A stretch of DNA of 64,000 bases from Marsupella aquatica (lineage: Eukaryota > Plantae > Marchantiophyta): assembly GCA_973895155.1 (NCBI GenBank), contig OZ316892.1, positions 19,011,457 to 19,075,456 on the forward strand, written 5' to 3'. The notes beneath the pieces were generated by a model that worked only from the letters and a program-made list of their open reading frames with translations, had not been told where the DNA came from and made no database searches. Below are positions 1 through 38,128 of this stretch, in pieces. The translations under genes were made by a program, and so were the position numbers. The stretch's first letter is position 1. The number at the start of each line of letters is the position of its first letter.

Positions 1-106
1 ATTCAGGGAACGTACACTAAAAAACAAAGTTTACATGTAGGGACAGTACACTAAAAAATAGTACATAGTGTAGCATAAATTACATAGCTAGGCCATTCAT
101 TCTTAC

Positions 107-2281
107 CAAACGTTTAGCTGTCGGTGCAGTGCCGGTCCTTCCTGTCAGATTAGGGTTCTGAACACTCAACCTGGCCTCGGTCATCTGTGAACTCTTCTTT
201 TTTGAAGCATCTGTTACAAAATAAGCTACTAACCTTGCCCACACTTTATCATCACAACTGGCTGGTGGAGGCATATCTGGCTTCTCCCCACCTTCCTTCC
301 AAGCCTTATGCATTCTCCACCTCTCTTGCTTGATAATTTTACCTGCTGTACTCTCTAGGCAACCTATGTCCACGCCATCATCACTGCCCACATAATTCCA
401 TTTGGCAGCAACATTTTCACATACAGTCTTCCAATCTTTTGGATGCTGTTTTTTAAAATTAATAACACTCACATCTAACCAACGCAATACTTCAGCTTTC
501 AAATCAGCATGCCATCGGTTCTTGCGAGGACACTCAGCATCCACCCATTGTCTCTCATTCAACTTTACGTTCCCTTTCTTTGTCACCTCCCCTCGTGCAC
601 TGCTCTCGGTAGTACTGGGCGTTGTATTGGCCACCCCTTCATTCACCCTACCTGGGGTTCTGAAGCCACCTGGGAAAATACAATGCCATTCATGCTTGAG
701 AACTACATATAGCAGAATGGATGACGGCAACATTCAATGCTTCACTTCAAGAAAAATTCTTCAAACATACATACCTGTAGCTCTGCCTGTAGATGCCTGT
801 GCAGGGACTGCACTCTGAAATTGTTGCGACCCTGGACCACCTGTCCAGCCTAGTACAGGGGCCGGATGATGTCACTTTCTAGGTATGTGTGTGCAAACAT
901 ATGTACTGAAAACTAAGTACAAACTGTAGGAAAACAACTGAACATTCACCGACATACCTGTCCCCCTTCCGTGCTGCATCTGCATAGGGGCATTAGTGAA
1001 TACTTGAGTCGATGGTTCGACTGTCCAACCTGCACACATACATTTTCTATCATTATACATGTGCAGAGTCCCCCCCACGTGAATGGACTCCACATATAAT
1101 GAGTTCTTCCATTGCTGACAAGATCAGACATTACCTGCTCCTCTTCCAGCGTTTGTAGGTACTGAATTTTGATATCCCTGCCAATTACCTTCACCACCTT
1201 CCCAACCTTGTTCATTCCACGACCCACCACCATCCTCCCAACCTGGTTCAACCCATGTCTGTCCTTGTGGACATTGGAACTGATCATTACTAGCATTTGC
1301 CCAATCAGGTTGGGCAGAATCTGCATGCAATGGCAGGTGGACAGAATTTCATGTTGTCTGAATCCAATACATCCCAAACAATGTCAAAAATTGATATGCA
1401 GTCTGAAATTCAGGAGTGCCATGCCTTCACAAAGAACTGGCATATAGATATATACTCACATCCCCACGGTTGAGGTGGACGTCCATACCCACGAGATTGT
1501 GGGTTTGGACCTGCTCTGCCTCTACCACGGGCATAACCTAGAGCTTGCCCCCTGCCATAGTATTGGGCACCAGCCTGGGATCTACCACTACTACCACCTC
1601 GCCAACCTTGATCAGAGGTCAGCCCCCCCTGCTGGTATGGTGCATGCACAGGCTTCGAAGGCAAAACAGAACTGGCAGGACGCTGCATCACATCACCAAC
1701 TACAATGTCAGGAACTAAGCAAGGTACATATGTGTAGTACTGAACATATGAAACCTCTAAACAAGAGTTTTTAACTCAAAACCTTGTTGGGAAAACTACT
1801 TACATGTTTCTTTTGGGGCTGCTCTGCAATGTATTCATCTTCATAACCCCCATCCTCATCCATTTCCTCTGGAAAATACTCATCATCTGCATCTTCTTGT
1901 CTAGTGTCTGCACCCACCTGTGCAGCATCAATGTCATCTCCACATTCTGCCATTGTAGGTACGACCTTCTTGCTCAACCTGTCACTCCGACGCACAGGCC
2001 CAGAGATAGTGCTGGTCACCCTTCTTGCGTACTCCTTTTGTTTCTTTGAAAATGCTGTGGCTCTGCGACATTCCAATATGAGAATACAGTCACAATTTCA
2101 GTGCCACATTGAACTATTCATGTCACACAAACTCAGCGGAGGGGTGTAGTTGAGAATCGTTCCCTTACAATTCAGCCACATCCTTTTCCAGATCCAGTTC
2201 TGCGATTTTGGCTTTCACGTATGCTCGTTGTTCCATAGCTTTCCTTTCATACTCACACATCTCTGTGTCACTCTGTTCCAT
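107..2281 (-). CDS. CACTA TnpA/TNP1-like (Transposase_24-type) protein, multi-exon, 3' end outside the window
   Basis: The exon at about 107-670 has the Ptta/En/Spm-like motif W-x-x-LVAYF...KKSSQMTEAR...NLTGRTG and ends at a GTAAG donor at 106. Upstream there is a likely start exon (MEQSDTEMCEYERK..., ATG 2281), an acidic exon (about 1805-2070) and several short Gln/Gly-rich exons with canonical splice sites. Internal exon boundaries are approximate. Confidence 0.7.
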
Positions 2282-2437: not shown

Positions 2438-5400
2438 TCATGGCACAGGCACACTGTTGGCATCTGCATCTCTGAATTCGCCTCCTTCAGCAAATGCATC
2501 TACCCTTGTCACAGGAATGAAGTCCCCGCTATCATGAACTACAGGCACTTGGTCTGAACGCCGACGATCAAAGGCACTATGAGAGTGTAAATGAAACTCA
2601 AGGTTTGATCCTTCCATCCGGCGTTGCCTGGCCTGTTTATGACACACTACACGCCAACCTGGGGAGTCTTCCACATCCAGGAAGAAAGCTTGCTCCACCT
2701 GACTAGGAAACACAAATGGCTCAGACCATTCGGGCAATTTCCCTCTGAAATTGGCCAGCAAGAAACCGTCGTTGTCTCTCTTCATGGTAGCCCTGTTACC
2801 AAGCCAATCCTGCCGCACCCATGAACCTTTCATAAGAATCACAGGACTGGACACCGCCCCATAGTCCAGAGCCCATATGTCAACTAATTCTCCCACATAT
2901 CCCATCTCCATCCAGGCCCTGTCGTGATTGTGGCTCTGTTGCTCAAATACAGTGATGAGCCCGCAGTCATTCGTCACCCTGTAGGCACTGTCACCATCCT
3001 TCACTCGGAAGTGATTCCCATATGCTCTCATCCGTTTGTAAGTCTTCACTTTCAGGCTAGGGGCATTAGACAGTAGGTAAACATCTGCATCCATGTCTGG
3101 GTGGGTCTCGTGATGCTCTCTAATTGCCACTCTGATCCACTCCATGAAACCTGGAAAAGTTGTTCCTGCAGTGGGATGGGCCGCCTTCAATGACTCATAC
3201 TCCCTGAACGAACAACCACACAGCATTAGCTTGGGTAAACATGAACAGGCTGAAGGAGAAAACCACACGAACACAACATTTAAGCTCATGAACTGGATTA
3301 TAGCACATGTATGCACTCACTGTATCCAGGGTTCCATCACCACAGTGTTGTGCAATACAAAGTCATGTGCCAAGTCTCTCATAGATATGGTCAGGTTCTT
3401 TGTGGTTGCAGCCCCTTCCAGTACTTCACCTACCACCCCTTCCTCCTCATCAGAATTCCACACCCTGGTCTTCACATGCTCATATTGTGCTATGTATTCG
3501 GTCAGAAATCCCAGAGTCTCATCCTTGATGTAACCTTTAGCCATGCTTGCTTCAGGTTTGTAATATGTTCTCACGTGACCTTTGAGTAGCTTCATGTACC
3601 GTTCCAAAGGGTACAACCAACGAGCACTCACAGGCCCAAATTGGTGTAGCTCTTCCACAACATGGACAAGTAGGTGGGTCATGACATCAAAAAATGCGGG
3701 AGGAAAATAAATCTCCAGGTCACACAGCACCTGAGCGACATCTTCTGTCAGTTGTGGGAAGTGTGTTTCATCCCAAACCTTCACACAAATACGACGAAAC
3801 ACATCACTGAGTCGCATGATCACAGTACGAACAGGCTTCTGCAACAGGCCCCTCAGGCATAAAGGCAACACCTGTTGCATCAACATATGGTAGTCATGGC
3901 TTTTCATACTACCAAGCTTTCTAGTCATGATATGCTTCTTGAAAGCACTGCCATAGTTTGAAGGAACCTTCAAAGAACTCAACCTCTGCACAAATAGTTC
4001 CCACTCTGTGTCTGTCAGAACATAGGGCGCTTGGTACTTCAAGAGCACATCAGCTCTGTGGGCATGTGGCCTCAACCAAAGATGGGGTTTCATTCCCCTC
4101 TGTTCAAGATCCAATCTCACTGAACCAGTGTCTTTCTCTCCACACAAGAATCTGAGTAGACTCTCACAAATATTCTTTTCAATGTGCATAACATCAATGT
4201 TATGTTTGCTTGGCTCAAACTCCTGCATCGTTGCAATGCAAAAGCGTCAGGAAATGCCTCAAGTTTAGTCTCTCTCTTCGAAATGAATGCACATGCTCTG
4301 AACCAAAACATGTATCCCAATTAGCATCAACTCCAAGAGGCTTACCCTCCAGTACTTGAGCTCCAAGTCCAATATGCTCAGTCTTTTTACACCATATCGC
4401 TTTATTGGATCACTCACTCCATCTTCCCTGCCCCCTCGTTTGATATAGTCATCCCTCAGTGCTCCCCACTGCCTGATCTCCTCTTTGGTCACTCGTGCCG
4501 GGGGTCCACGTTGCTCAATCTCATTGCCAAAGTGTGCAATCAGTGCCTGTCTTTCTCTGTAAGGGTGATCTGTCTTCAGAAAACGACGATGGCCCATGTA
4601 TATCACTTTCTGCAGGGCTCTGGAGTACTCACTGGTGACATTGCGCCCACAGATAGTACAAGCACAATATCCTTTTGTTGTTTGGCCTGATATCATCCCA
4701 TGGGCTGGGTAGTCAGCTATAGTCAGAATGACAATGGCTCTAAGGATGAATGGGTTTAACCTCCCAAGCCTCTGTAGGACATCATATGTGAGAACTCCTT
4801 CCTCCCAAAGCTTTCTCAATTCCTCCACTAGGGGAGCCAGAAACACATCTATGTTGGCAGATACAGCACTGTCTGGCCCTGGTATCAGTAGGACCATCAG
4901 AACAAAAAATCGCTTTGTAGTCATCCAAGGAGGAAGGTTATAATTCAAAATAGTTACAGGCCAGCATGAAAATTTGTTGTTCTTGTCTCCAAATGGGTTT
5001 ACCCCATCCAATGACAGCCCAAGTCTGACATTCCTCGGCTCAGCAGCAAATTCGGGATACATCTCATCTATGAGTTTCCATTGCCTTGAATCTGCAGCAT
5101 GTCGTTGTAGCCCATCATCACTTTTCTTGTCAGTTGCCCAAGTCATCATCTCCGAGATGGCACGGCTTCTGAACATCCGCTGAAGTCTGGGAATGAGTGG
5201 AAAATGACGAAGTACCTTGGCGGGAACCATAGACTTTCCTGAGTTCCGATACCTGTGCTTCCCACACTTAGGGCATGTCAACGATTCTTTATACTCCTTT
5301 CTGAAAAGAACATGCCCATCAGGACAGGCATGGATCGAATCATAGTTCAATCCAAGATTAGATATGCATCTTTTTGCCTCGTACATGTTCTTGGGCAAAA

Positions 5401-6169
5401 TATTACCATCTGGTAGCACAGTTGTTCGCAAGAATGCCAACAACTCAGAAACCAAAACGTTGGGGACATTGTGGTTGCCGCAAATGTTCAGGAACATGAT
5501 GACAAATCCCAGTTTAGAACATTTGCTACCGGGGTACAAAGACTTCCTGCCTTCCTGTATTTGCAGGGGAGAGCCAAACATCCCATCATGCCCAGGGGTT
5601 TCCTGCCCTATCTCAAACTCATCAAGAGGCTCTTCGACAGGGGGCACACTTGCATCTGCAGCCGTATCCTCTTCATTGTCCAGCCCATCATGAAATGCAT
5701 CCAAGTCTTGGAAGATGTCTCTCACCATCTCTTCCACATGAATTCCTTCGTCACGTGGTGCTGCCTGAGCACCATCCCGTTGGAGAGCTGACAACCCACA
5801 GAGACCAGCTACAACATTTTCAAATGCACCAGGCAGAACCTCACTTGCCCGTCTTGCAGCATTGGCAGCATCAAATTCTAACCTCCACTCCTCGTCGGAA
5901 GAATCTTCCTCTGCAGGATCATTCCAAACTCGATGTCGTGGATCTCTTCCATGAACCGCGATATGCCGCCAAACCTCATTCAGACCCCTGGTACGGGATC
6001 CTTGGCAGATTGCACAAGGACATCTCATCCTACTGGCTCCTGAAAGTCTGGTTCGTAACCTTTCACGCTGCCAAAGCTTATTATCATGGCGTGATATCCT
6101 TGTGGGATGATGCAAAGGCAGTGCCTGTGCCCTGGGCTGGGTCTGGGGAGGGTGGTGACCAGGGTGCAT
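2438..6169 (-). CDS. CACTA TnpD/Tnp2-type transposase, 3 exons: complement(join(2438..3203,3321..4222,4346..6169)), about 1163 aa
   Basis: Motifs include N-terminal CPCAIC...H, YDSIHACPDGHVLF, CPKCGKHRY, LRHFPLIPRLQRMF, RNVRLGLSLDGVNPF, DYPAHGMISG, HNIDVMHIEKNICE, KSHDYHMLMQ, FFDVMTHLLVH, WLYPLERYMKLLK and EPFVFPSQVEQAFF. GT-AG introns at 4345-4223 and 3320-3204 join the three ORFs in frame with no stop. Confidence 0.93.
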
Positions 6170-6602
6170 TGTAACAGGCTGGGAGCTCTGCAGTCATGGA
6201 CAGCAGTGAACAAGGATGCCTAATGGTGGTATTTGTGTTCCATATATCCCTGACTGTATCTGCCAAAAGAGTTAACATAACGTGTACTAAATTCTCACAA
6301 ACCCTAAACCACCCCAAAAGAAAAAAACAGGTTCGCAAGTAGTGTACCTATTGTCAAGTGAATGACACAAAATTTCTAAATGTTGGAGGGTGTCACCACC
6401 TCCTCCGCTGTCCTCAAATGTACCGCCTCTGCATGTACGTTTACAGTGACACCCCCAGGCAGCAGGAAACAACAATCCGCCAACAGTAAAATAAGCCCAA
6501 CTGCCACCAACCATAACAAGGTACATTAGTTCAAAGATCACATTTATTTCAATGATCTGATTTATACAAAAAAACTTGTGTCCAAACTGATGCTACTACT
6601 CC

Positions 6603-7475
6603 TCACTCTGATTCAGAATCGCTAATGACCCATTCCTCACTTGTTGTCTCATAGTCCTCTCTGTAAGGATCCTGACCCTTCCGTGGCCAGGCCTCAAAAA
6701 GATCATAGTCCATTGGGTTTTGACGCTTCCCAGCTGCTACTGATTCCACAAGCCAAGCATATGAAACCACAAACACATTATGGGACATGACATAAAAGCG
6801 AATGTCTCCCTTCCCAAACTTGCGGCAGGCTTTGGGATATGACTTAGTAATGACATGAGTGGTGTCCTCTGTTATATTCTCCTCCACTGTCCCACCTAGG
6901 TCAAGCACTGTGGACTTGTACACTTTGCACTTAACCTCTCCAATTCCCGCCTCCACAAATACCATGCTCAGCCCTTTCAGAATGGGGGTTGGTTGCTTCG
7001 TCTCCTCAGCCAACATACTCTTCAGCCTTGTAGAGCTCTGTCCTTTGTTGAGTACAGGTCCATATTGGAGATCAGCAAGCCGTGCCTTTGCTTCCCAGAC
7101 TTCTTGTTCAGCCCAAGCTGATGCAGTAGCTTCTTCATCCTCCCACAACTCATATTGCTCAGTATCCTGTACAATCTTATGTGCTATGGAATCTGTGATC
7201 CAAGAGGCCTCAACTACTTTTAGGCCTTGCTTAGTAATTGCAGAATTCATGTAGGACCATGACCACTTCTTTATCACTGATAGCCATGTCCCTGCAACAA
7301 CATGTGTAGTCTCTGGAGTGATGTCCTGAACTACAGTGCCATGGAGCTCAGAGAATCGTTTCTGTACAGTTGGCCAATGCACTTTGGTCAACCCATGCTG
7401 GCCATGGACCAAAATCGCTCTGACCCCTGTAAACACTGCTGGGTGGTCACACTTTCTACGTTTACCAGGCTCCAT
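6603..7475 (-). CDS. Tandem BRCT-domain protein (two Pol lambda/PolX-like BRCT repeats), transposon cargo
   Basis: Intact intronless ORF of about 290 aa (ATG 7475). It has two repeats with BRCT hallmarks: FTGVRAILV...GTVVQDITPETTHVVA...SWITDSI...YEL and LKGLSMVFVEAGIG...LGGTVEENITEDTTHVIT...AWLVESVAAG...YDL. The C-terminal tail is acidic. Confidence 0.8.
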   Translation of the reverse strand: MEPGKRRKCDHPAVFTGVRAILVHGQHGLTKVHWPTVQKRFSELHGTVVQDITPETTHVVAGTWLSVIKKWSWSYMNSAITKQGLKVVEASWITDSIAHKIVQDTEQYELWEDEEATASAWAEQEVWEAKARLADLQYGPVLNKGQSSTRLKSMLAEETKQPTPILKGLSMVFVEAGIGEVKCKVYKSTVLDLGGTVEENITEDTTHVITKSYPKACRKFGKGDIRFYVMSHNVFVVSYAWLVESVAAGKRQNPMDYDLFEAWPRKGQDPYREDYETTSEEWVISDSESE

Positions 7476-8067
7476 GTACACACACCCTACGTGATGACAG
7501 TGAATTTTGGAAGAATGGGTTCACCTGACAATACAAGGACAACAAAATTCCTGCTTTTTGAGTTGATCTGGCCCACTGGTGCTCAGGTCCGATTTTGATA
7601 GGTACAAGGGATATGTGAACAATACGTACTAGGCACCTGCACGGATGCAGGACATTGTTTGAATATATACTACAAAATCCATATCCGTGGTGAAATGAAG
7701 TGCAACCAACTTGTCATGGCACATACATATTTTGTTGTAAAGGAGGATACATTCAATGACAAACTTATAGGGCAATTTGATTAATTGCATGCCTGATAAT
7801 TTATACGCTTACAACTTAGAAGTCCTGTTTTAATTTAGCAGTGTGATGAAAGTGTTTATGAAAATGACCACTCAGCCTAAATACTTCCAAGAAGGCTTGT
7901 AAGGATAAGTTTGTATAGGCATGTACCCAGCCACTGACGCCAGAGCACAAGATAAGTGCTGCCTATATAAACTCGCCTACCCAACTCCTTTTCAAAATTG
8001 GAATCTCTGCAATCTCAAAAAATAGTACATCCACATCAGGTGCACTGTGCATGTACAATGTTCAGCT

Positions 8068-8748
8068 TCACAGCCAAGATATGTGATCTCTCACAGGAGT
8101 GCGCGAGGTAGGATCAATGGCATGGCGATGACAATAAAATATCCATCGATCAACACCATGTGCAGAGTGATCATAGATTTCTCTGTCACAAGCATAACCC
8201 TCTGCTTGATGATCTTTCAGGCAATGATAGTGCCACATAGTGGGACACCTAGCACAGTGGACTATGTCAGTCCAGTAGTCATCATCATGCTCACCACATG
8301 CCTTGCACCTATGAAGTGGGCAAGCTGTGGCATGAGCAGGCAAACACTCAAAACAGAAAAATCTCACACAAAAACGGTCTGGACATTTCCTAACATTTGC
8401 TGCAGCATCAACAGAGCCCTCATAGGACCCCAACTTCCCACACTGTGCACACTTAGCCTGCTTCTCCAAACAATCAGTGCACATCCAGTCTCCCTGGTGT
8501 GTTGACGGGAGGCCCACCCCTGGACAGTTGTTTTCTGCAGCAAGGTCAGACTCCGGGTTGAGGTGGAAATGCCTCATGCAAGGGCCCTCACAAATGACCA
8601 GGCCCCCACCATCGTCACAAATGGCACAACAATGAGCTGCCTTCTGGAAAATCTGACTTGCAGAGAAGTTAGTAGCATCTGCCCCAAGTACACCTGTGTT
8701 TCTCACCTCTGTCACACGCTTTTTGGCTTGAATTTTAGGCCGTGCCAT
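8068..8748 (-). CDS. Stand-alone composite PHD-finger protein, EDM2-like, transposon cargo
   Basis: Intact intronless 226-aa ORF: CAICDDGGGLVICEGPCMRHFH...WMCTDC..KCAQCGKLGS...CPLHRCKAC...CARCPTMWHYHCL...IFYCHRHAID...TPVRDHI. This follows the order and spacing of the EDM2 PHD region as I recall it (CAICDNGG..CEGSCLRSFH...CPLHKC...CRRCPKSYHRKCL...IYCQEHEID...TPVRDHV). Confidence 0.82.
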   Translation of the reverse strand: MARPKIQAKKRVTEVRNTGVLGADATNFSASQIFQKAAHCCAICDDGGGLVICEGPCMRHFHLNPESDLAAENNCPGVGLPSTHQGDWMCTDCLEKQAKCAQCGKLGSYEGSVDAAANVRKCPDRFCVRFFCFECLPAHATACPLHRCKACGEHDDDYWTDIVHCARCPTMWHYHCLKDHQAEGYACDREIYDHSAHGVDRWIFYCHRHAIDPTSRTPVRDHISWL

Positions 8749-8759
8749 GCCTGCGCATG

Positions 8760-8903
8760 AGATAGACTCTACAATTTAGCAGACTGCACAGAAAGTAATA
8801 TATATTTAGCATTTAAGGTACAAAGGCATTTAGATAGACTCTACAATTTAGCAGACTGCACAGAAAGTAAAATATATTTAGCATTTAAGGTACAAAGGCA
8901 TTT
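8760..8903. repeat. 72-bp tandem duplication directly upstream of the PHD ORF
   Basis: AGATAGACTCTACAATTTAGCAGACTGCACAGAAAGTAA...AAAGGCATTT starts at 8760 and again at 8832, near-identical. Confidence 0.95.
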
Positions 8904-9518
8904 GCTACTGCAATGAATTGGAATGGCCACACAAGGATGCAGAGCACACATACTTTTGGTATGTTGAGCCCACACACAAAACTGATCCCCTAATACAATT
9001 TCTCCACCAACACCTCAATTTTAATTGTGGCTATGATTCACCAAAGGAGATCTGCAACAACATTTCATGCATTTGAATCACATACAATAGTCGTGACATG
9101 TAAAACAGGCATTCTTCGAAGAGGATTGGTATGAAGTAGTGTCATAAGGGTTGAAATTTATACATCCTAAATAGGTTATGATAGTGGCTGAGACAAATAA
9201 GTGAGGCATAAATCATTTTGCATATTATCACATGGCCCATTAATTCATTCAACGTTGCAATGTTCACCAGGTTAAAGCAGTCATGAAAGCAGTCTTTCAA
9301 TAGAGACTTTTATGCGAGTTTGCTAGCCTCTTAAATTAGGATATTTTGCTTAGTGCAGGCATAATAGGATATAAGTTATATACTGTTGACCCTAAACCCT
9401 GGACCCAAAATTGCTCATACATCAAAATTTTAAGTAAATATCCTCTGTGTTGAAGTCAGAGTGTTAAGCTATAGGTCAATGGTATCTGGTCTGTGCATGC
9501 GGTGTGACAAGTGGTCCT

Positions 9519-9968
9519 CTAGAGCATGTGATCCAAACATGTGTAGACACCAAAGTCACCGGTGGTGGGGTCTGGGAGGGCAGGACAAGTGACATCACCA
9601 GGCACACTGCAGGATGGCGAGTGGTTCCAAATGATACATTGTGCTCTATGCAAAAATCGGCATCCAAGAGAACGGTCATCCAATTCTGGGCCAGAAGCCC
9701 TACAGGCAGGACAGTCATATTGGCAACTGTGTACACACCCTTGGCACCTAATTTGTGGCGGGTCATGTACAAGAGACACAAATACCAAGGATGTCGGGAA
9801 GGGTACTGAAGCAAGTAGAGGCCGGCTGTAGTTGTTCCTGGAAACAACAGGGTACTCAAAGTACCATGCAGACTGGGCTGGAAGGATCCCAAGTCTGACA
9901 TACTCAAGGCGCAACATCTCTGCCTTGCGTGCAAGTCGCACATGTTCAGCGTTGCGGGTCCTCACCAT
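9519..9968 (-). CDS. Small Cys/His-rich putative zinc-finger (divergent PHD-like) protein, transposon cargo
   Basis: 149-aa ATG-initiated ORF co-oriented with the other cargo ORFs. It has a basic N-terminus (MVRTRN..RLARK) and the ligand pattern CQGC..CQYDCPAC...CRFLHRAQC...CLDH. Confidence 0.5.
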   Translation of the reverse strand: MVRTRNAEHVRLARKAEMLRLEYVRLGILPAQSAWYFEYPVVSRNNYSRPLLASVPFPTSLVFVSLVHDPPQIRCQGCVHSCQYDCPACRASGPELDDRSLGCRFLHRAQCIIWNHSPSCSVPGDVTCPALPDPTTGDFGVYTCLDHML

Positions 9969-10962
9969 AAGTGTTGCTTTTGTTGTGATGTCCTCTGTTC
10001 ACGTCCTTTGATGAGCAAGGTGAGCAGGAGGTCGACTTGCCTCGCCAACAGCAACCACCTAAACTAATCAGTTCCCACTCAACTACAGGTCATAGTATAC
10101 ACATAGCATGAAACGTGCATAGTACATATTTGATTCTGAGTTTATGAGTTTCCTAAGACAAAGAGCTTGGTGATAAACCCATATTCTCGATGGACATGTA
10201 TATCAATCGTATTAAAATCCTGTTTTTTCATCCAGAAAGACCGAAAGTCTCACCTTGCAGGTTGCAGCAGAGAGAAAATTCACTGGTTGTCGTGTTGTGC
10301 AAGTGAACCTCCACTGATGCCCCCGGTGTAGCCCCTCAGATGCAGGTGACACTTACCAACTCCCAAGTTGCCTGGTCTAACAGAAAATGCTTATATCTTC
10401 AGAACTTTATAGAGCAAGTACATGATCACATACTTCTGGATCTATTCATATTTGGAACTCTTGCCAACTACAACTCCCATTATGCACAAGCTCACATCAA
10501 CAGAGAAAGATACAGAATGCATACTTACTAGGCTCTAAGCACCTTCACTACCTTGTTGAACCCAGTCCTGAAGTCTTTTCAGCGTGTTTGTTGTGCTGTC
10601 TCCTTTGGCACCCAACACCTTAGTCCTTGATGTAACAGAATGCAATTTTACAAGTTAGATGCTTTGGAACCTTCTATGGTCTTAGCTGAATTGATGTCAT
10701 CGTAAGTGGTGAAAGACAAGGAAGACGAAAGCTGGTTGAAGAGCTGTAGACAACACACTAGCATGAAGTGCTTCAACCAATCCACTGCCAAACGGAACTC
10801 TTACACAGTCACATTCTTTCAGTAAACAGAAACTCAGTCAAACTTTATAATCAAAGTACAGACTCTGAAGGACCAAAGGAGGATGTTGTGAGTTTCTCTG
10901 TTGTTTAATGTGTTACCCTTCTAGTTTCGAAGTTAGCAAATGCTGAATAATGTGTCTACCAG

Positions 10963-11304
10963 ATCTTCGAAAAGAAGCCCACCACAATTAAGAACTTCGG
11001 TATCTGGGTGAGGTATCAGAGTCATACAGGTTATCCCAACATGTAGAAGAAATATCGTGATACCACATTGAACATCGCTGTAGAGCAGATGTATGATGAG
11101 ATGGCTTCTTGTCATAGAGTTCGGTTCCCTTGCATCCAGATCATCAAGACTACGACAGTCCCTGTCTCTCTGTGCAAGCGAGAAAGTACCAAGCAGTTCC
11201 ATGATTCAAAGATCAAGTTCCCCTTGACGTACCGCAAGATTCAACCTCCATCGCGAAAGCTAAAGACGACTTACAAGGCCACCAAGCCCAACACATTTGT
11301 TTGA
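10963..11304 (+). pseudogene. RPL18A: Captured 3' exon of 60S ribosomal protein L18a (eL20), inactivated
   Basis: Translates [62 protein letters not shown]...[29 protein letters not shown]. There is an in-frame TAG at 11044-11046. It is preceded by an acceptor-like CTACCAG, and I found no N-terminal exons. Confidence 0.92.
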
Positions 11305-12942
11305 GTTTCTAGGTCAGGATGCTTAATATAAGGAAATTCAATTTTCACTTCGTTCCCAGCTTCTACTAATTGAATATACACGAGATGGAAGCAAGAAGAT
11401 AAGCCACAATCTAGCATCTTAGCCAAACACATTCGTCCCGACAAAGCAAAACTACAATCACACAGTGCGAGTTGTGTCTGCACCGGCACCCCCAGTGAGA
11501 CTGATCAGCATTTGGACTGCATCATTGTCTAGAGCTAGCAGTGGAAGGAATCAACATAGCTAGCAGTGGAAGGTGCAGTGGAGATAGCATGGGGACAGGG
11601 AAGGAAATGCAGGTTCCTTAAGCATAAATTTCCAAAAATGGAACAACAGGAAATGAAGAATAGGCACTGAAGCGGTCAACTAGACAAACGTTGTAACAAG
11701 GCAGCAAGCATTGGATTAAGAAGAAGCAAGGTTTCATCAGCAGAAGCAAGGTTTCATCAACAATGGCATTGTGAGACAAACCACTCCTTACAAATTTCTA
11801 CAGACATCCTCCCCACTTGCAGCTTCTCGGCCAGGCTGGATTTCTTGTAAGACAGGTTTCTTGTAAGAAAGATTTCTTGTTTGGTGAGGAAAGATCAAAA
11901 AGCAACTGATCAATGCCTTCTTGTCATCTAGAAGAGCTGGATGCAGCCCTGTCTCACATTTAATGTTAAACTGAATGAAAGACATTATGCGCATGCACAA
12001 AAGAAAGACATGAATATAATTAAGGTAGGTTTTAAGGAGCGGAGTCAGCAGTCAGACTTAGAAAGTTCAAATTGAAGCGCCATTAGTTTGGCGTGGTCAA
12101 GAGTAAATAAATGTTGGTCAGGGATACTCACCTCTTTTGAATGTATTACTGACTCAGCTAAGCCCAGCTAGACAGAAGTCACTCAGACCCACAAAAAAGT
12201 GAAGATCCACCTCCAAGCCGGAGCTCTATCACTTCAGTAGAGCAGCTTCTGGACGGAACCAACTCTAATCAGCCCCACAGAACACAAATGTTAAGGCTCC
12301 AAGTCAGAGCTCACTTCAGCCGAGGTGGACATCGCAGCTAGACCATTCAGTATAGGCAGTATGGAGCCTGAGACTACGCTCATTGTTCAGAATTGAGGTG
12401 ATGAAAGTGAGTTGGCATCAGTGGATACAATGAGAGGGGAAAAAATTCTGACCAAATCACACCTCTATAATCAGAGAGGTTCTATTTCCAGGGAACTCAT
12501 TCATTGACCAGAGTAATATGGCCCACATTTAATTAGACTATGATAGACTCTTCCTCTGCAGACTCAAACTCGAGGAACCCCCACGGATGCCAGCATATAC
12601 ACGAGCTAGAAGCAAGAACACAAGTCGCAATCTAGCATCTTGGCCAAACACATTCTTCCTGGCGATAGTAACTGCAAGCAAGGGGGAGACAGGGAGAACA
12701 AGGAGAATAGGGAGGCAACTCACAATGGAGCTAGGTAGCTCATGATCAAGCAACTTGCAATTGCAGCAACAGTAGTCTTAGTAGCAAGCGATTGAGCTCC
12801 AGGAAATGACAAACCCGCAGCTGAGTCCTCAACTGACAAAATGTTCGCCACTCGACCCTCCTTCCAACTGCAACCGCCAGATAGTAGGAATAAGATAGAG
12901 AGGTTGCAGCCTTCTCAGTGATCCAATAGCACCTCTCTTACC

Positions 12943-13200
12943 ACCTCCGCTCTTAGCACATCCGCTCGCACCTCCGCTCTCAGCACCTCCTTTGGCACCT
13001 GAGCCGCTCTCAGCACCTCCGCTCGCACCTCCGCTCTCAGCACCTCCTTTGGCACCTGAGCCGCTCTCAGCACCTCCGCTCGCACCTCCGCTTGCACCAC
13101 CTCCTTTGGCACCTGAGCCGCTCTCAGCACCTCCGCTCGCACCTCCGCTCGCACCACCTCCTTTGGCACCTGAGCCGCTCTCAGCACCTCTGCTCGCACC
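12943..13200. repeat. GC-rich 57-bp tandem repeat (about 4.5 copies) in the CACTA 5' region
   Basis: TTTGGCACCTGAGCCGCTCTCAGCACCTCCGCTCGCACCTCCGC... recurs at 12991, 13048, 13105 and 13162. Confidence 0.95.
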
Positions 13201-14494
13201 GCCGCCCAAACTGAAGCTACGTAGCAATCCTCAGCAGTGTGTGACAGAAGCACTCCACTCCAGCTCCACTCCGCTCGAGCTCCACTCCAGCTGCTCTCCG
13301 CTCGTAGCTCCTCGGCCAGACCGGCGGCCAGAGCAGCTCCCAAATTGCAGCTCCTGCCCGCCCACAGCTCCTCCCAGTCCTAGAGCTCGTCGTCCACTGC
13401 AGCTCACCTCTCCACTCCGCAAGCCGGTCGCCCTCTCAGCTTGAATGCTCTAGAGCTTTGAAGGTAAACCTTCAAGCTCCAAGCACAAAACTCCCCTACG
13501 CGAAGGAACTGCCCCGATCACGAAGCACACTCCCCACTTTGTGAGACCACGCACAATGTGACAACCTTCAGGCACGACGAATGTCCCCGTAATGGACAAG
13601 TGAGTTTTTCTGAAACAAAACCCTCCGAGTTCCCACGCACATTGAACTGAACTTTGCATTCTGCTGGCGTGTTTAAACCCTAAACAAAACCCGCGCACCC
13701 TAAACTCGTGTCCAAAGGCACACTCCCGCACAAAGCATACCTTAACACTTAGTGACACTTAGTGAACCAAACCCAATGAGCCTCGACCACTTTGCGTTGA
13801 CATGAGCCGTTGATACACATGTTAGTACCCTAAAGCAAATTGGACACGACACTTTGTGAGCAAAGATTAAATGAACGCAACTGTAACCTCTTAGAACGCA
13901 ACTGTAAATTAACCCTTACACATGCCACTTAGGGAGGGTGGACAAAGAATGGGGGCCAGACACTACTTTAGCCCTGAATTGAAAATGATATCACCCCAAT
14001 ATTCTTGTCAAAGTTGCCCATGAACTCTAAGGAATCCATTGAGCAGCATAAGACTTACTATTATAGAGGCAAGTACTCCCATGCACGTTTAATTAGGCTA
14101 GCTAGGATAACTAGCTACAATGCTCTTGACATGAAGACATTTAACTAGTTCTGCAACCCTAAACCCCCATTCCTTCTATGTGCACCTAGTGCTCCCGACT
14201 CCGCAAGTTGCAAGTCAAGGGTTGTAAATGGAACATTCCGTGATGTCTAGAGTGCATGTAATCCTTCTTGCACTCTATTTCAGAATGCCGTAATGGAGAG
14301 TAGCTTATTCAACTTACATATGACTGCCCTACTAGTGTTACAATTGCTACTTTATCAGAAGTTGTAGGAATGACTTTCACAAATATCCCCCAAAAATCAG
14401 TTGATAAAATGTAACAACAATGACTCCCCTAAACTTGGAGTCATGTATTTTTGAAAGTCTCCCTAAAGTCACAAAGCATAGGGTCTCAAAAGGG

Positions 14495-14511
14495 GACGTT
14501 TTCTTCTAGTG
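14495..14511 (-). repeat. CACTA terminal inverted repeat (5' terminus)
   Basis: Plus strand GACGTTTTCTTCTAGTG is the reverse complement of CACTAGAAGAAAACGTC. Short GACACTT/CCACTT motifs cluster subterminally at about 13745-13970. Confidence 0.8.
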
Positions 14512-14915
14512 TGAGAAAAATATGTGAAGATGAGGAAAAGATGTTGAGGGTGAGGGAAAGATGTTGTGGTGAGATAAAAATGTGAAGTTGAGAAATAGAT
14601 CAGATTTCGAGGTGAAAACAAATATCAATGACAAAAAGAGATGTTGAGGTGAGACAAAGAAGTCAAGGTGATGTTGAGGAGAGAAAAAACATGGCGAGGT
14701 GAGAAAATGACGTTGAGGAGAGAAAATATGTCGAGGGTGAGGGAAAGATGTTGTGGTGAGATAATGATGTCAAGGTGAGAAAAGATGTCAATTCAGGTGA
14801 GAAAATATATCAAGGACCTAAACGATGTTGAGGGTGAGAAAAAATTGTCATGAGATAAAAATGTCAATGTCAGAAAAAATGGCGAGATGAGAAAAATATG
14901 TCAAGGCAAGGTAGA
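14512..14915. repeat. Purine-rich minisatellite (about 19-21-bp unit, GAGAAAA..ATGTTGAGGT-like) abutting the CACTA terminus
   Basis: Degenerate tandem copies such as gagaaaaatatgtgaagat, gagggaaagatgttgtggt and gagaaaatgacgttgagga. Confidence 0.85.
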
Positions 14916-16992
14916 GTTGTTGTGGTGGTGTGCAACAACTCGTGCACTGCACATAGAAATTGGAGGCTAAGATAATAGTCACCGCAACATAGAGTCCAAG
15001 CACAACCAAGTGATAGAAAAAATTATTTTAAAATTTAAATTTTTAGAGAAATTAATATCATATATACATTATTAATACTCAAGTTTTTTCAAACTTTAAA
15101 GTTCTTATCCAATTCTTTAAGTCTCAATTTGAATAATTATTTTTTAATAATATTCAATTTTTTATTTTTTATCTTGGTTGGGTTGAGGTAGGTTATGGGT
15201 AGCTTGGGCAGAGGTAATCCAGATTAATAGAGATATGGATGGATCCTACATTTACAGAAAAACAAATTTTTACTTAAGACCTAGGATTGTTCCCATTTTT
15301 TCTTGAGTTTGTAAATAGTACCATATCCATTTTTAGAGGATATGGTATATCACTTATGATACTCTTGCATACAACTGGGTTAGGTACATTTTTGTCTTTT
15401 GTTCCCACGTTATATTCTTTTTTGTGTGAAAAGTGCATGCAACAGGGTTAGTTACATTTTTTGTTTTTTGTGTACACCAATTGATTACTGTTTGTGTGAA
15501 AAGATTTACTGTACTTTTTGGTTAACACTATATTTAATTTGCTTTTGGTTTTATCCCTTCTATTTATTGGTTACTTCTTTTCTTGGCACTGTATTTTTGA
15601 ATGACGACCACTGCATAAAAAGGCGCAACCTTGTATTATAGTTCTTGATAATGCAAGCAACTCTATGAGTATTAGTCTATGTTGATATTCTCCAACTATA
15701 TCATCAATGTTTTGTTAAGAAGATGTTGCCTCATTAAAACCCTCTCATACTCCTGAGCTGAGAGAAAGAGTACAACCACCTTTTACAGATGTAAATCTAT
15801 CATATGGTAGTAATTATGAGTGTCTAATTATATACTCAAAGTTTAGACAGTTTTCTAATGCCAATACCTTGACAGTGAACTTGGTGTGTGTTGTTGGAGG
15901 TAAAGCCTTTGTAAATAAGTCAGCATGATTATCCTTGCTCGCAATTGCCTTTATGTTGATGTTGTCTCCTTCTTGCTCATGAGTGAAGAAAAACTTTGGC
16001 GCAATGTGCTTGATCCTGTTGCCTTTGATTTTGACACCTATTCAACACATGCAAGGTTGTCTTTGAATAACACTGTGGGTTGGGTTAATGCTGGTAACCC
16101 ACAATTACTATTAATATGGTTAATAATTCTTTGTAACCATATGCATTCTCGACTTGCTTCATATAATGCAATTATTTTGGCGTGGTTTGATGAAGTGCAA
16201 GTTAGAGTTTGTTTCTAAGTGCTTTTCCATGATATTGTTGTAGTTCCGTATAAAAATACATATCCAGTCTGAGATTTGGCATCATCGGGGTCGGATAAGT
16301 TACCAGCATCTGCATATCCTGTTAATGTCAGACCAATGTGATTAGGGAAATATGTCCCATATCAACAGTTTGTTTTAGATATCTAAAAATTTGTTTAACT
16401 CCATTCCAATGGCGTATAGTGGGTTGTGCACTATGTCAAGCCAACAAGTTCACGGCAAAAGAGATGTTGGGTCTGGTCGGGGGTCTGGTTTGGTTAGCTA
16501 AAAACATTAAGGCTCCAATGGCCAATAACTAAGGTTTCTCTGGTCTTTGTGCGTTTTTGAAATATGTCTTTATCTTGATCAAGAGATCGTATCTCCATTG
16601 GAGAGGTTACAGGATGTGCAGAGTCCATATGAAATTGTTTAAATATCTTGGTGGTATAGGTACTTTGGTGTAAGAGTATGCCATTGTCCAAGTGTTCAAA
16701 TTGTAGACCTAGACAGTAGTGGGTTTTGCCCAAGTCTTTCATTTCAAATGATCTGGTTAGCATGTCAAATGTATGTTTAATTAACATTGTGTGTCCAAAT
16801 AGGTTTATATCATCAACATATATGGTGACGAAGATGAATTCTTTATCTTGGTTCTTGATGAATAAGCATGGTGCTATATCTTCATTTATATATCCCATTT
16901 GTAACATCTTGTCTCGAAATCTCTGGTATCACATTCTTCCGCTTTGCTTTAGTCCATATAAAGATCTCATGATTTGGACAACATATTCATCC

Positions 16993-24777: not shown

Positions 24778-27285
24778 ATTTTTATTTTATTTTAAATTAA
24801 AAAAAATTAATGAAGGGAGGGGCAGGCCCCATCAATTAACACCGGAGGGAAAACCTGCCCGGGCAAAAAGACAGAGCAAACACACAAGGAGAGAAGGATG
24901 CCCTAGCTAAGCCCTCCCCTCCCAACCACCAGCCAAAGCCAGCCGCAGAGATCAGTATATCCGTGCCTCATTTCACTAGAAACCAGCCTATGCTCCATTC
25001 TAGTAGAATTAGTTCTATTCCTATGTCTCCTAAATCTACTGTTGTCCTTCAATTGGTTAGAGAGGTGGCTGTTATCCAATAATCCACCATGTCTACTCTG
25101 AACGAACAGGTTAGTTCCATGTGGGCTCGACGACAGAGTCCCACCCAGCCCCGGGTCAAGCACCAAGAGCAGCCAGCTGATTTCATACTCACTCATCATA
25201 GATACCATTATCAGTGTCCTCGACCATTCCCGTCTGTTCCACGATTGGGAGGATGTCCATCAGCTCATGAAGGGTTCTCATGATCTGCCTACTCTTCTTT
25301 GGTGAACTACTGGAGCTAATCATGTGTCTAAGATGTTGTTCAGTCCTATGCAGGATCTCCCTAATCGGGATTTTCCCTAGAGTCTGGTCAAAATGCATTG
25401 CGTTTGTTCCAGAAAACACTGCACATTTCCTTGATCACAATCAGTGGGCCAGGGTTAGTTTTCTGTTTTCTCATTGCATGTTTGATCATTTCCATGAGCC
25501 CCCCCTGCCCCAAGGTCAATCGACGAGTCTTCGAAGTGCTAAGTTGATGCAGAAGTTGCCATCTATGCTGCACATGTGTGCAGCTGAAGAACAGGTGTTT
25601 TGTGGTCTCAGTTTGGGCCCTGCAGCTTTGACACACACCAAAGCCTACCCCAAATTGGTGAAGAACCTCGGGGGGCCGGGGGGGGGGGGGTTGACTATAA
25701 AAAATCTTAGGAATCACGTGCAATCCAAAATATGTATTTTTCATAGAAGTTAGCAAAATTATTAAAAAGCGTAGGAAGCAAAAGAATGCATTATAAACCC
25801 ATATTTGTAGAATATTCTCTAATATATATCTTTTTAAAAGTAAAATATGTCATTAATATTGAAAATAGAGAATAGTTTTTGAATAACATGAATATTCAAA
25901 AACATGAATATTTATAACATGAATGTTCAAAAACCAACGCCCATTAGGATCTCTGAGATCACATAGGGATCAAATTTTCTGATTAGCCATGAACCTGCGG
26001 AGGGCGACCTTGTTTTCATCCCCCAGATTGGTTGACCTGAAATACAGCAGGAGGGTCTGTTCAATCGAGAGCTGTCCGGGAGCTTGCCCCGTCCAAAGCC
26101 AAACTTCAGGAAGGCAGCCTGAGCATCCCATCCTATAAGAAGTGCTCTCAAGGTGGGTGTACCAATCACTTTTAACGACAAGTTCAAGAGGAGCGCCTCC
26201 GGTGGCGTCCAATTGTGCCGTTCCTTCTTGTCTGGTCCAAAGCTCAGGGATTTCCTGATGACAACGTGCGAAAGCTTCACCCAGTCCACATCCGTATTCA
26301 TGATCAACTTCATCACGTGTCTCATCTTAAGTGCCTGGGCTTGCACATTGAACGGGAGGATGCCCAGACCTATCGCTCTCCTCTCTTGAGTGATTGTTTC
26401 CCAACTGTTTGGGGGTAACTTATTATCCCATTCTTGAAGTGCCCCAAAGAAAATTGCGGCTAATCTGCTCCATCTCTTCAGAACCAGCCTGATTTAACAA
26501 CAACATAAGGTGGTAAGTAGGAATGGCCCTAAACATGTGTCTAAGCAGGATTGCTCTACCTGGTAGAGTCAGACTCATTACACACCCAGTGGTTAAGCTT
26601 CTTCCTCATTTTCCCTACTAGAAACCTAGTTTCTTGGGAGGGCATAATCAAATGCCCTATATAGGGCAGCCCAGGTACTCACTGAGTTCACCAGGTCTAG
26701 TGACGACACATCCTGTCCCCTACATCCACTCAAGGTCACTCGGGTCAGATGAGAATCGGGGTATAATTTTAGATTTGTGCACATTAAGCAAGGCCCCCAA
26801 AATTCGTTCATAGTGGTGTATAACCCGTCTGGCAGCCTGAAATTCCTGCTGACAAGCCACTCAAAAAAGTCATTTATCATCAGCAAACAGTTGGTGGCAT
26901 GCAGCGGATCCATCATCCAAAGGAAGCCTGTGTAGTTCCTGGGTATTGAGTTTTTGCTTAAACATCAGCATGAGAGGTTGGGTGGTCAACTCAAAAAGCA
27001 GAGGGGCCAGAGGGCATCCTTGACAAAGTCCCCTTTTCAGACAGAAAGATCGCGTGAAGAGCCCATTGTTGTGGACCTTGGACTGGGTGTTTTTCACCAG
27101 GCCCCTAACAAGCTTGATCACCTACCTAAAGAAATTCATCTGTTTGAGCACCTCCCAAAGGAAGTTGTGTTCAACCCTGTCGTAAGCTTTGGCAAATTCA
27201 AGCTTTAGGAACGTCAACGGTTTTTTATTGAGTCCTGACAAGTCTTGAGCAAGTTTGAAAGTCAGCAGGTTGTCCGTAATGTCCC
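24778..27285 (-). mobile_element. 5'-truncated, decayed L1-type LINE
   Basis: RT motifs RGLCQGCPLAPLLF and HQLFADD (26870-27121) and a zinc-knuckle CQSC...ETTKHLFFSCTHV (about 25570-25650). A T-rich tail on the plus strand is at about 24778-24794. Confidence 0.88.
25667..25930. mobile_element. Truncated end of a CTCGGGG-family TIR element inserted in the LINE
   Basis: CTCGGGGGGCCGGGGGGGG..GACT...TCACGTGC followed by AT-rich sequence interrupts the LINE coding region. No second TIR was seen. Confidence 0.5.
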
Positions 27286-35489: not shown

Positions 35490-38128
35490 TTACATTTCAA
35501 TGATATATAACTATACCAACCAAATCACTTTGTTCACTACCTATGATGTTGTAACAAAAATAAAATTATAAACTCATATTTATAGACTATTATTTAATAT
35601 AAATTTTATAAAAATAGAGTAATAATATTGAATTTTTTTTGTAAAATAGATATATTAATATTAGATTAAAATTGATACCTCAAAATATATATTAAGTTTA
35701 CCATGAGAGGCAAGGAAAGTACTCATCTACAATCCGCATCTGGTTCCTTCAAAGATAGTAGGACACGTGCATTGGGAATGTGCAGGAACAATGTCTGTCC
35801 ATCCCAGCCTTTGTTTCTAGAAATTACATATTATGCCACAAAAATGGGACAATCGAGCACGAACACATGTGCTAATTTGGATTAAGATACGTGGTAACTT
35901 GTGTTAGGGCACAAGTCCTAATTTGGATTACGTTGACACTTGAGACTTTTTCGTTTGCCTCTAAATGGAAAAGGGAGTTGAAAACGCGGTGAAACTGAGG
36001 ACCCCTGGTAGTTACAATCATGCCTTCATTCCACATCAGGAGGATAAGGTGAAACCCAATGACCTCCAGACGAGTCACCAGTACCTTTGTCAGTTTGACT
36101 GTACCCTACTCGAAATGCGGATTTTACAGCTGTCGATCGACCAAAGTGACACTATAACCAGACGGTCATCATTCTCTAACCCAATCCTGCGTATTGGCGT
36201 ATTGCGGAAGGGCTCAAGGGCTACTGTGCTACTCTAGTCTGACCGCAGGGACAGTTATCATGATCAACTGTCACAGTAAGCTCCGGTGGCCGTGCCGGGG
36301 TCATGTAAGCCAGGTGTCGGTCCCATTGTCCACGGTACTGCGAACGGTTGTTGGTCGGGGTTAAACCGGACGGCAGGAAGTAACTGGAAAGACCCAAAGA
36401 CGGCCAACACAGTTCCGTTAGTTCGCTCGAGCGAGCCCCATGGCTCATGACGGCCGGACGGTAGCTTCCCGCCCACCCATTGCGGAGCCCGTGACTACTG
36501 TAGACGGCTACCGGCACCTACAGTAAGTTGACGGGTAGGGTCGTGGGCAACCCGGCTACGTGGAATTTTCCCTGGCGGCGGAATGGCTCCCGTCAACTTC
36601 CCGACGGAGGAAGACTTAAGTGACTTAGTGAATTTTCCACTGCCATGGAAACCGAAGCATCACACCGACGTCCGAGTGGAAGATGAAGATCCAACCGCTG
36701 TGTCGATCGGCGCGGCCGTTGGTGGTAAAGTGGTCATTTTCTGGTCTCATGTGCAGCAGGCTCTGGGAGACGGGCGGGGTTCGAACTCCGGTAGCGTATG
36801 CTACTTGGGTGGGGGTGGCGTCTTGTCCAGAAGCAGAGGATTTCTGCGAGTGATCATTCCTCGTTGGACTATCTCGAGGGCCAAGACGAAAGCAAAGGAA
36901 CAGAGTAACCTAAACTGTGGAAATTGAACAGAGTCTGAAACTATGAGACACGTTAGTTAACTGAGGTTAGTATCACTGCCGTAGAGGGAGTCATGGAACT
37001 CCGTGATCAAACTACGATAAATCTAGATGGGGCGAGAGATGTAAGTACGGATATGGCGTTGTTGGGCCAGTGAGAAGGGAACAGCTGTTGCCCCAGCGCC
37101 GAGCCAGAGGAGCCGCCGACGCTGTTGGACGAACCGAGTGACGAAGCTTTGGGTTTGGGTGTGGGGACTGCTCCGGCGAGTTTCTCTCGTAGTCTCGTGG
37201 CTCTCGAGTCTCTCGACCGTTTCGGACCGAATGGCCGAAAAGTTTGCTTGCGGTGAATGGCATTGACTTGTCACATACTACCGAGTCACGTTACTGCATC
37301 CGCAGACGAAATCCAACCCAAACTCGTGCAAGGCAGGGCAAGGCAAGGAATGCAAGGCATGGATAAGTGATCACGGCATTATTTAAATAAGCAGCCGAGG
37401 AGCCAATCAACGATGCCTGCGTCGGTAGACGTTAGTACAATAATAAGTTGCCGAGTGAAGCAGAGGAATGGAATCTTGAGTTGCTTGCGGATTTCGCACA
37501 GATTGTCCCAGCAGAGAAATGTCCTGCTGTGTAGGCTGAGGATAATTACGATAGGCCTTCCCCGCGGGCTATCATGATCTAGTCTAGCAATTGCTGTGCT
37601 GTACAATTTTATTTTTATTCTTTCTCAATGTCCTCACGGACCCATCGCTCACTTCCTGGCTGCATAAGATCCCAGTGGTCCGGAGTCAGTTGCATCAGCG
37701 CAGTGTGGGAGAGCACTCCAGCGAGGAAATGCGTTCGCAGTAGCGAGCAAGCACGAGATGCGTTCGCAGTAGCAGCCAAGCAAGTAGCTTTCCAGCCGTC
37801 CCACTTGCGAGACTTCATTGCACTCGTGGTACAGTAAAGGGAGCTGCAGTTCCAGTATCTATCATCGTGAGCAGTAGTCAGGAGCGTTTGATCGGTCATG
37901 TTCGATAATTGTGATTGTGGAATTGTGGGTCCCGACTCTCGAGATTAGATCACGATAGTGGTACAGGAATTGTTGTTGTTGGTTCTTCTGTGAGAGTTTG
38001 ACGATAGAGTGTTCAGCAATCTGAGCGAGCAGAATAAGAAGGAACCTGCTTGAGGAGAGGAGAGGAGAGGAGAGAAGTGTTGTTCACCCAATTCTTCAAT
38101 CAGTGGTGGTTCATTGTGATAGCAAACA

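Follow-up and report, generated by a model that had tools for sequence, protein, structure and literature searches.

Can a DNA transposon keep a histone-reading module of its host as a protein of its own and, if so, to what end? The question is raised by an open reading frame (ORF) of 226 codons in a 64,000-nucleotide stretch of the genome of the liverwort Marsupella aquatica, referred to below as the window. A preliminary description, made from the sequence alone, had seen in this ORF almost only PHD-like fingers, had noted a likeness to Arabidopsis EDM2, and had proposed that a transposon encodes it as a stand-alone protein acting through H3K9me2. Accessory ORFs and captured domains are known in plant DNA transposons (PMC8978399, PMC6446971, PMC13317346, PMC13547354). 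Known plant transposon anti-silencing proteins bind element DNA (VANC, for one, binds non-coding regions of its elements), and the gene pieces captured by CACTA elements have mostly been treated as fragments. Here, a transposon very probably retains a histone-reading module of its host as a protein under selection, with a reshaped pocket, beside a conserved twin-BRCT gene. The protein is small, predicted to be well folded, and lends itself directly to tests of the ways in which DNA transposons read the chromatin of their host or escape it.

The PHD ORF is part of a multi-copy CACTA/EnSpm element

The ORF is read from the minus strand and encodes 226 residues followed by a stop (C-terminus IFYCHRHAIDPTSRTPVRDHISWL, with ...TPVRDHISWL as its last residues). 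When 6001–14511 was shuffled 300 times as a control for its length, a single shuffle contained a stop-free run of at least 226 codons. It lies between a CACTA terminus at 14511 and the exons of a Tnp2-family transposase, and hence inside a CACTA/EnSpm element; in public runs, one contig stops precisely at 14511 and a second departs from the sequence at that point, so that the ORF is transposon-encoded, as had been proposed. From this 5' end the element carries, in order, a Cys/His-rich ORF, the PHD ORF, a twin-BRCT ORF, Tnp2 and a TnpA-like exon (Table 1). Tnp2 matches Transposase_21 (E 2e-70) and DUF4218 (E 5e-28), with DUF4216 under its cut-off; its 1163-residue reading is a prediction, the best-consensus splice pairing among 216 frame-keeping ones, and has short introns of about 120 nt.

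Table 1. Features of the CACTA element, with the subdivisions of the PHD ORF.
Feature	Position	Strand	Evidence
TnpA-like exon (Transposase_24, under cut-off, E 1.5e-4)	80..733	-	Pfam
Tnp2/TnpD transposase, predicted exons 6169-4346, 4222-3321, 3203-2438; 1163 aa without stop	2438..6169	-	Pfam and splice consensus
Twin-BRCT accessory ORF, 290 aa	6603..7475	-	Pfam BRCT E 2e-13, two stretches
EDM2-type triple-PHD ORF, 226 aa (P0001)	8068..8748	-	frame, Pfam, EDM2 alignment, profile, AlphaFold2
Finger 3 and EDM2-type YCxxH...TPxRDH tail, residues 148-225	8074..8307	-	profile, alignment
Finger 2, residues 100-146, His ligand replaced by Cys, ~19 residues deleted	8311..8451	-	alignment
AIRE-like finger 1, residues 41-93; acid that binds R2 retained, K4 pocket altered	8470..8628	-	alignment
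Family-specific extension ahead of finger 1 (aromatic 28, Q35, H39), replacing the EDM2 acidic stretch	8629..8676	-	alignment counts
Basic tail at the N-terminus (residues 1-16) with A-R-x-K...K9 in H3 register; possible mimic or nuclear signal	8701..8748	-	family alignment; unstructured in model
Candidate splice acceptor (CAG), 2 nt ahead of the PHD ORF ATG; predicted	8751..8753	-	failed stricter pyrimidine filter
72-bp tandem duplication directly upstream of the PHD ORF	8760..8903	.	repeat family D8
Cys/His-rich accessory ORF, 149 aa	9519..9968	-	open frame
CACTA element 5' terminus (CACTAGAAGAAAA)	14499..14511	-	sequence; public contigs; 3' end beyond the window

Nine of the public runs listed contain part of the window, and in five of these at least half of the words sampled are present. 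Contigs from four of these runs were aligned to 6000–15000; they came from all four (1051, 6992, 307 and 73 contigs) and fell into all identity bands down to below 90%, which indicates that the element is multi-copy with diverged relatives. None of the 12 indels examined, out of 63 in the public contigs over this interval, falls in the PHD, twin-BRCT or Cys-rich ORFs. For the twin-BRCT ORF, two relatives match along the full length, with identities of 60% and 54%; a weak PDB sequence likeness to the BRCT of BRCA1 (E about 0.007) was also seen. For the Cys-rich ORF, no Pfam match with E below 0.07, no PDB match and no usable Atlas match were obtained, and three of its four listed variants are synonymous in frame. 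Summed contig depth in runs X1 and X2 is greatest over this ORF, depth not being taken as copy number.

Several minor features of the element and its border were recorded as well. Contigs in runs X1 and X5 skip about 11453–12165, and this copy of the element may therefore carry an insertion there. A 65-bp direct repeat recurs internally 1221 bp apart (11374–12659), a 57-bp tandem array occupies 12890–13231, and a degenerate tandem-repeat array, itself abundant in public runs, adjoins the 5' end at 14512–14944. The CpG observed/expected ratio is 0.23–0.43 in the element ORFs (2438–9968) versus 0.53 in 15000–38000, with no depletion of CHG in the ORFs (0.98–1.21), a combination suggesting that methylation in the host falls mainly on CG.

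Other CACTA/EnSpm elements that carry additional domains or captured fragments share with this one the CACTA end, Tnp2 with DUF4218/DUF4216, and Transposase_24. The extras described for them in the accessible part of PMC8978399 are Transposase_24, Peptidase_C48 and short gene fragments, with no PHD or BRCT ORF named there. Our literature search, in partly accessible sources and with Repbase and subscription journals beyond reach, likewise found no EDM2-type PHD ORF or BRCT ORF described in a CACTA element. VANDAL elements resemble this element in having separate accessory ORFs (vanB and vanC) in a DNA transposon, and Rehavkus resembles it in having a PHD finger, which there, however, is part of the transposase; both, unlike this element, belong to the Mutator superfamily (PMC6446971).

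The three fingers are of EDM2 type

Pfam content in the ORF is limited to PHD-type matches, namely PHD-1st_NSD (residues 39–93), PHD_NSD (96–140) and PHDvar_NSD (148–180), all three under the curated cut-offs. With 24 Cys/His ligand positions assigned by alignment, they bear out the first impression of a protein made almost only of PHD-like fingers. An AlphaFold2 model built on a 95-row alignment (pLDDT 87.4, pTM 0.82) predicts a three-finger fold with residues 1–24 unstructured; an input of only six rows gave a poor model (pLDDT 45), which was discarded. Comparison of the model with solved structures by VIA returned nine chains with Z of at least 2, all as partial matches, the best being the PHDvC5HCH tandem of NSD2 (Z 5.3, rmsd 2.7 over 75 residues), and Foldseek returned only low-TM matches, to PZP and NSD. 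No whole-module match is thus among the VIA and Foldseek matches listed, which does not mean that the fold is new. A PDB sequence search returned no EDM2 entry, and for structural studies the ORF offers a naturally occurring minimal version of the EDM2 PHD module.

The PHD cluster of NSD1/2/3 (PF23011, PF22908, PF23004) has the same finger types as the ORF. We compared the two candidate sources by alignment and profile. Residues 41–225 align with residues 225–432 of Arabidopsis EDM2 (EDM2_ARATH, P0156) with 64 identities in 211 (30%, E 2e-27), so the likeness noted at first is real; no second significant alignment between the two proteins was found. A profile made from six short relatives and searched against 1.84 billion proteins gave 564 matches at E ≤0.001, and among the best 150 of these 564 the short relatives come first, followed by proteins named EDM2 or EDM2-like, the EDM2_ARATH cluster among them, and by liverwort proteins. 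On this one profile, EDM2-family proteins score 108–145 bits (Marchantia P0015, 132; an Arabidopsis suecica protein, 108; both extending to position 215–216) versus 45 bits for NSD2, under half of the former, in line with the prediction that the best matches would be to EDM2 and not NSD. Moreover, residues 647–802 of NSD2 match profile positions 12–171 only and stop ahead of the EDM2-type tail, whereas the ORF can be aligned to the EDM2 module along the full array and includes the YCxxH...TPxRDH tail, which is unmatched in NSD. Judged by these comparisons, the PHD ORF is of EDM2-family rather than NSD-type origin. The top Atlas match, a streptophyte PHD_NSD cluster (0.92), also counts for this origin.

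A family of short proteins very probably kept as protein

Five relatives of near-equal length (217–245 aa, covering 97–100% of the query) are 82, 75, 53, 37 and 38% identical to the PHD ORF, and all five end at the DHISW motif. Four have all 24 ligands identical, one of them with 51/152 other identities (~33%), and P0005 has lost two (22/24 kept). Nine short proteins form one clade (support 100/99) in a tree for which 32 were taken out of 144 proteins whose module is complete, and a quick 70-row tree agrees on this clade. The same ends, zinc ligands kept at identities down to 37%, and a single clade together argue that the family is selected as protein. Degeneration in other copies, named in the preliminary description as a sign against its proposal, is found in part: the five near-length relatives are intact and conserved, but several others (P0012, P0014, P0046, P0123, P0141, P0143, P0144, P0150) are truncated or out of frame, as expected among transposon copies. 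The relatives checked are Logan/JGI proteins on contigs of 1.0–5.7 kb, and the transposon context, established for this element and near copies, is assumed for them. We consider it very probable, on the strength of these alignments, that the PHD ORF is an intact, selected accessory protein of the transposon with an EDM2 origin.

That the captured piece is kept only as DNA, as neutral or camouflage cargo, would fit the capture of gene fragments by CACTA elements, for which camouflage has been proposed (PMC8978399, PMC13317346), and the existence of broken relatives. Open frames, a full set of ligands at 38% identity, and new conserved residues absent from the host nevertheless need protein-level selection, and a protein identity of ~30% leaves little DNA likeness to the host gene, so we hold cargo of this kind to be highly improbable. 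A metagenome scan (11 loci from 221 stretches) yielded no member of the short family, only grass-like EDM2 transcripts and unrelated PHDs, and a search for longer homologues gave 0 of 340 candidates, which is uninformative since the same search also missed EDM2.

As to the donor, liverwort EDM2 paralogs, not canonical EDM2, are the host sequences nearest to the family, and single characters favour them, while in the tree neither source is rejected. The short family sits on a long branch, and the free 32-row tree draws it to the base without recovering a joint clade with the paralogs; topology tests rejected no grouping (p-AU 0.10–0.40). Constraining it with the five liverwort paralogs (P0013 and P0029 from Calypogeia, P0018 and P0024 from Marchantia, P0016 from Riccia; a clade of their own, 99/100) cost 2.1 log-likelihood units (p-AU 0.40), and constraining it with canonical EDM2 cost 7.3 (p-AU 0.20). 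At the RxFH position, His, Gln or Tyr stands for Ser in 18/18 short proteins and in 5/5 liverwort paralogs (H/Y in the latter), Ser being present in 101 of the 122 scorable others (131 examined). Like the short family, the paralogs have few acids ahead of finger 1 (mean 3.6), in three of the five the protein stops only a few residues past the DH motif, and an F-S-x-x-E-V-N stretch is found in P0013 with identical spacing. P0013 also gives the best pairwise score with P0001 among three host proteins (111 bits, versus 104 and, for EDM2_ARATH, 98). Unlike the PHD ORF, the paralogs are 619–768 aa long, have a long finger-2 linker, and have Pro rather than His two residues before the first Cys. Their PHD module lies close to the C-terminus, and the H/Y residue is at the K4-pocket position.

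Short EDM2-like proteins of grasses (P0032 from Eleusine, P0034 from Miscanthus, and L004) likewise have an EDM2-type PHD without RFD or methyltransferase-like domain. Unlike the PHD ORF family, however, they fall with the EDM2 proteins of seed plants and retain an acidic Trp end at the C-terminus like that of EDM2, and hence represent an independent derivation. Several of the short EDM2-derived proteins of grasses (L004:541–1662, L005, P0032, P0034, P0040) start with MARK or MARM and end in an EDM2-like GW motif.

Departures from EDM2 in fingers 1 and 2

Besides its PHD module, EDM2 has an RFD; its acidic domains, methyltransferase-like (ELP) domain and Pro-rich end are described in PMC7529245. 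The PHD ORF shares with full-length EDM2 the three-unit Cys/His array and the tail behind it, but has no RFD, acidic stretch, methyltransferase-like region or Pro-rich end. Its 226 residues with PHD-type Pfam matches only, and the single alignment to P0156, agree with the earlier observation that the other EDM2 domains are lost. In the 20 residues preceding finger 1, Asp and Glu number 1.9 on average in the short family (n=17) versus 8.5 in the EDM2 family (n=114; P0064 and P0103, without finger 1, were dropped), and the extension found there instead is modelled with pLDDT up to 91 at residues 31–40.

In AIRE, D297 and A317 set K4 specificity, with K4me3 readers placing an aromatic cage there, and D312 binds R2 (PMC2261226). 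By alignment these map to H39, H60 and E54 of the PHD ORF. H39 is present in 16/18 covered short-family rows and His or Gln at 60 in 18/18 (Ser in 64/83 host rows), an acid occupies the D312 position in 17/18, and Trp or Phe occupies position 88 in 19/19, the last two being taken as retained contacts with the end of H3. The PHD ORF thus departs from the AIRE-type H3K4me0 pattern of an acid at D297 and a small residue at A317, and EDM2 itself mostly has Ser or Thr at the D297 position; the R2-binding acid is in place. At the ING2/BPTF cage positions it has His and His/Gln, in addition to a conserved aromatic at 28 (17/17 covered rows), as read from the alignment. As far as alignment can tell, the finger-1 K4 pocket is neither of AIRE type nor a clear cage, and the R2 contact is retained.

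H3K9me2 reading by EDM2 has been reported in reviews (PMC7472560, PMC7529245). Given that the pocket differences are family-wide, this reading cannot simply be transferred to the PHD ORF, and the proposal that the ORF reads H3K9me2 as EDM2 does is not supported in the form in which it was made, the acidic stretch being lost and His/Gln standing at both K4-specificity positions in place of the Ser of EDM2. With its pocket so changed, the protein may have lost H3 binding.

Finger 2 has changed too. Its His ligand is Cys in 13/17 covered short-family rows (His in 81/83 host rows), and it is ~19 residues shorter than in EDM2. The finger-2 linker is 7 aa long in 10/10 scorable short-family proteins (11 examined) versus 10–44 aa in all 125 other pattern-matching proteins (27 aa in 79 of them), so the middle finger is indeed shortened, and a segment of 25–27 aa present in 94 of the 125 is gone from the PHD ORF.

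The 7-aa linker also bears on whether the protein stands alone. Were the ORF the final exon of a larger protein made by splicing, as an AG 2 nt before the ATG and the alternative splicing of CACTA elements (PMC13547354) might suggest, its linker might be expected among longer proteins, but it occurs in none of the 125 others, long ones included. In addition, the Met keeps its position across relatives although the linker that follows it varies, and the upstream Cys-rich ORF is closed by a stop. A last exon is accordingly very unlikely in our estimation; the stand-alone status claimed for the protein is well supported, with the candidate acceptor as a point against it.

An H3-like motif in the N-terminal tail

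After removal of Met, the protein begins A-R-P-K and has a Lys at position 9, which we take to be the register of A1, R2, K4 and K9 of histone H3. M[AT]R occurs within the first 30 residues of 13/18 short-family proteins, of which 10 have K4 in register and six have K9. A1, R2 and K4 of H3 are named in PMC2261226. The tail might imitate H3, either plugging the protein's own finger or soaking up host H3K4/H3K9 readers and methyltransferases, and the motif in 10 of 13 scorable proteins, a linker behind it that varies in length and sequence, and the lack of structure in the AlphaFold2 model would suit such a mimic. We nonetheless judge it decidedly unlikely. K4 is missing in three of the 13, a similar R-K/P-K motif is internal in 4/18 (P0008, P0014, P0143, P0150), and K9 is weak evidence because the tail is lysine-rich anyway. 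MAR starts are found also in EDM2 proteins of non-seed-plant hosts and in the short grass derivatives, so that the motif may be partly inherited, and a nuclear-localisation or DNA-binding arm would be a simpler account of the tail.

Some full-length EDM2-like proteins from algae and non-seed plants (P0015, P0019, P0025, P0080, P0090, P0119) begin MAR, in three cases MART; many other full-length matches start with MASS.

A wider reading would see in the element a cassette built from host parts, with an EDM2-derived triple PHD reader of new specificity and H3-mimic N-terminus, a twin-BRCT protein and a zinc-finger protein, in which the tail would control access to the reader or draw the host's H3K4/H3K9 enzymes away; taken as a whole we think this unlikely. 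No transposon-encoded histone mimic was found in the literature searched, subscription journals being beyond reach.

Possible role in transposition

We lean, tentatively and short of even confidence, towards the PHD ORF being an adaptor that would dock the transposition proteins encoded by the element itself on nucleosomes in a particular chromatin state. Reader domains steer the enzymes of mobile elements in the case of the RAG2 PHD and the chromodomains of chromoviruses. Rehavkus has a PHD finger in its transposase (PMC6446971), and accessory proteins of transposable elements modulate integration or silencing (PMC13547354). Tethering is favoured here because chromatin-reader domains in mobile elements, such as these, usually steer an enzyme. 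The history and action of the protein might then run as follows. The module would have been captured once, long ago, from an EDM2-type gene of a host, a paralog of the liverwort type being the most economical source, and would be expressed through a 5' leader spliced to the acceptor ahead of the ATG. With the R2 acid that it has kept and the A1 pocket, the protein would bind the N-terminus of H3, with a K4 preference unlike that of EDM2, and would contact TnpA/TnpD or the neighbouring accessory proteins. No recognisable transposase-binding domain is found in its sequence.

Shielding of H3K9me2 and bridging to AIPP1, the two roles put forward in the preliminary description, appear somewhat disfavoured. 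As an anti-silencing shield, the ORF would act as a decoy, a reader-only protein that sits on the element's marks and blocks host silencing readers or writers. Competition would suit a reader that has no effector domain, VANDAL/Hiun elements are known to carry anti-silencing functions in separate ORFs (PMC6446971), and the CpG depletion of the element ORFs is as expected of methylated DNA; yet the pocket differs from that of EDM2 across the family, so that H3K9me2 reading is not transferable, and no feature in the protein accounts for specificity to its own element. We regard such a shield as rather unlikely.

For the second role, the PHD ORF would recruit AIPP1/EDM3 and ASI1/IBM2, in the manner of the AAE complex, and let the long element transcript read through its own heterochromatin. 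EDM2 acts in this way at intronic heterochromatin (PMC7472560, PMC7529245), and several ORFs in series would need a controlled choice of 3' end. We give this role only a slim chance, since the protein is without the RFD, the methyltransferase-like region, the acidic stretches and the finger-2 segment of 25–27 aa kept by most other proteins; host EDM2 would already provide the function; and the predicted introns of the element are unlike the long heterochromatic introns that the AAE complex serves.

Other features in the window

Outside the element, two stretches on the minus strand, 16494–16928 and 25388–26493, are presumably fragments, resembling copia reverse transcriptase and LINE respectively; the one LINE-like piece scanned gave no Pfam match. 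A GH32 gene with introns, invertase-like, lies on the plus strand at 38123–41278 (Pfam E 2e-82 on 39355–40443), and exons at 58260–61125, on the same strand, resemble what we take to be IspG/HDS.
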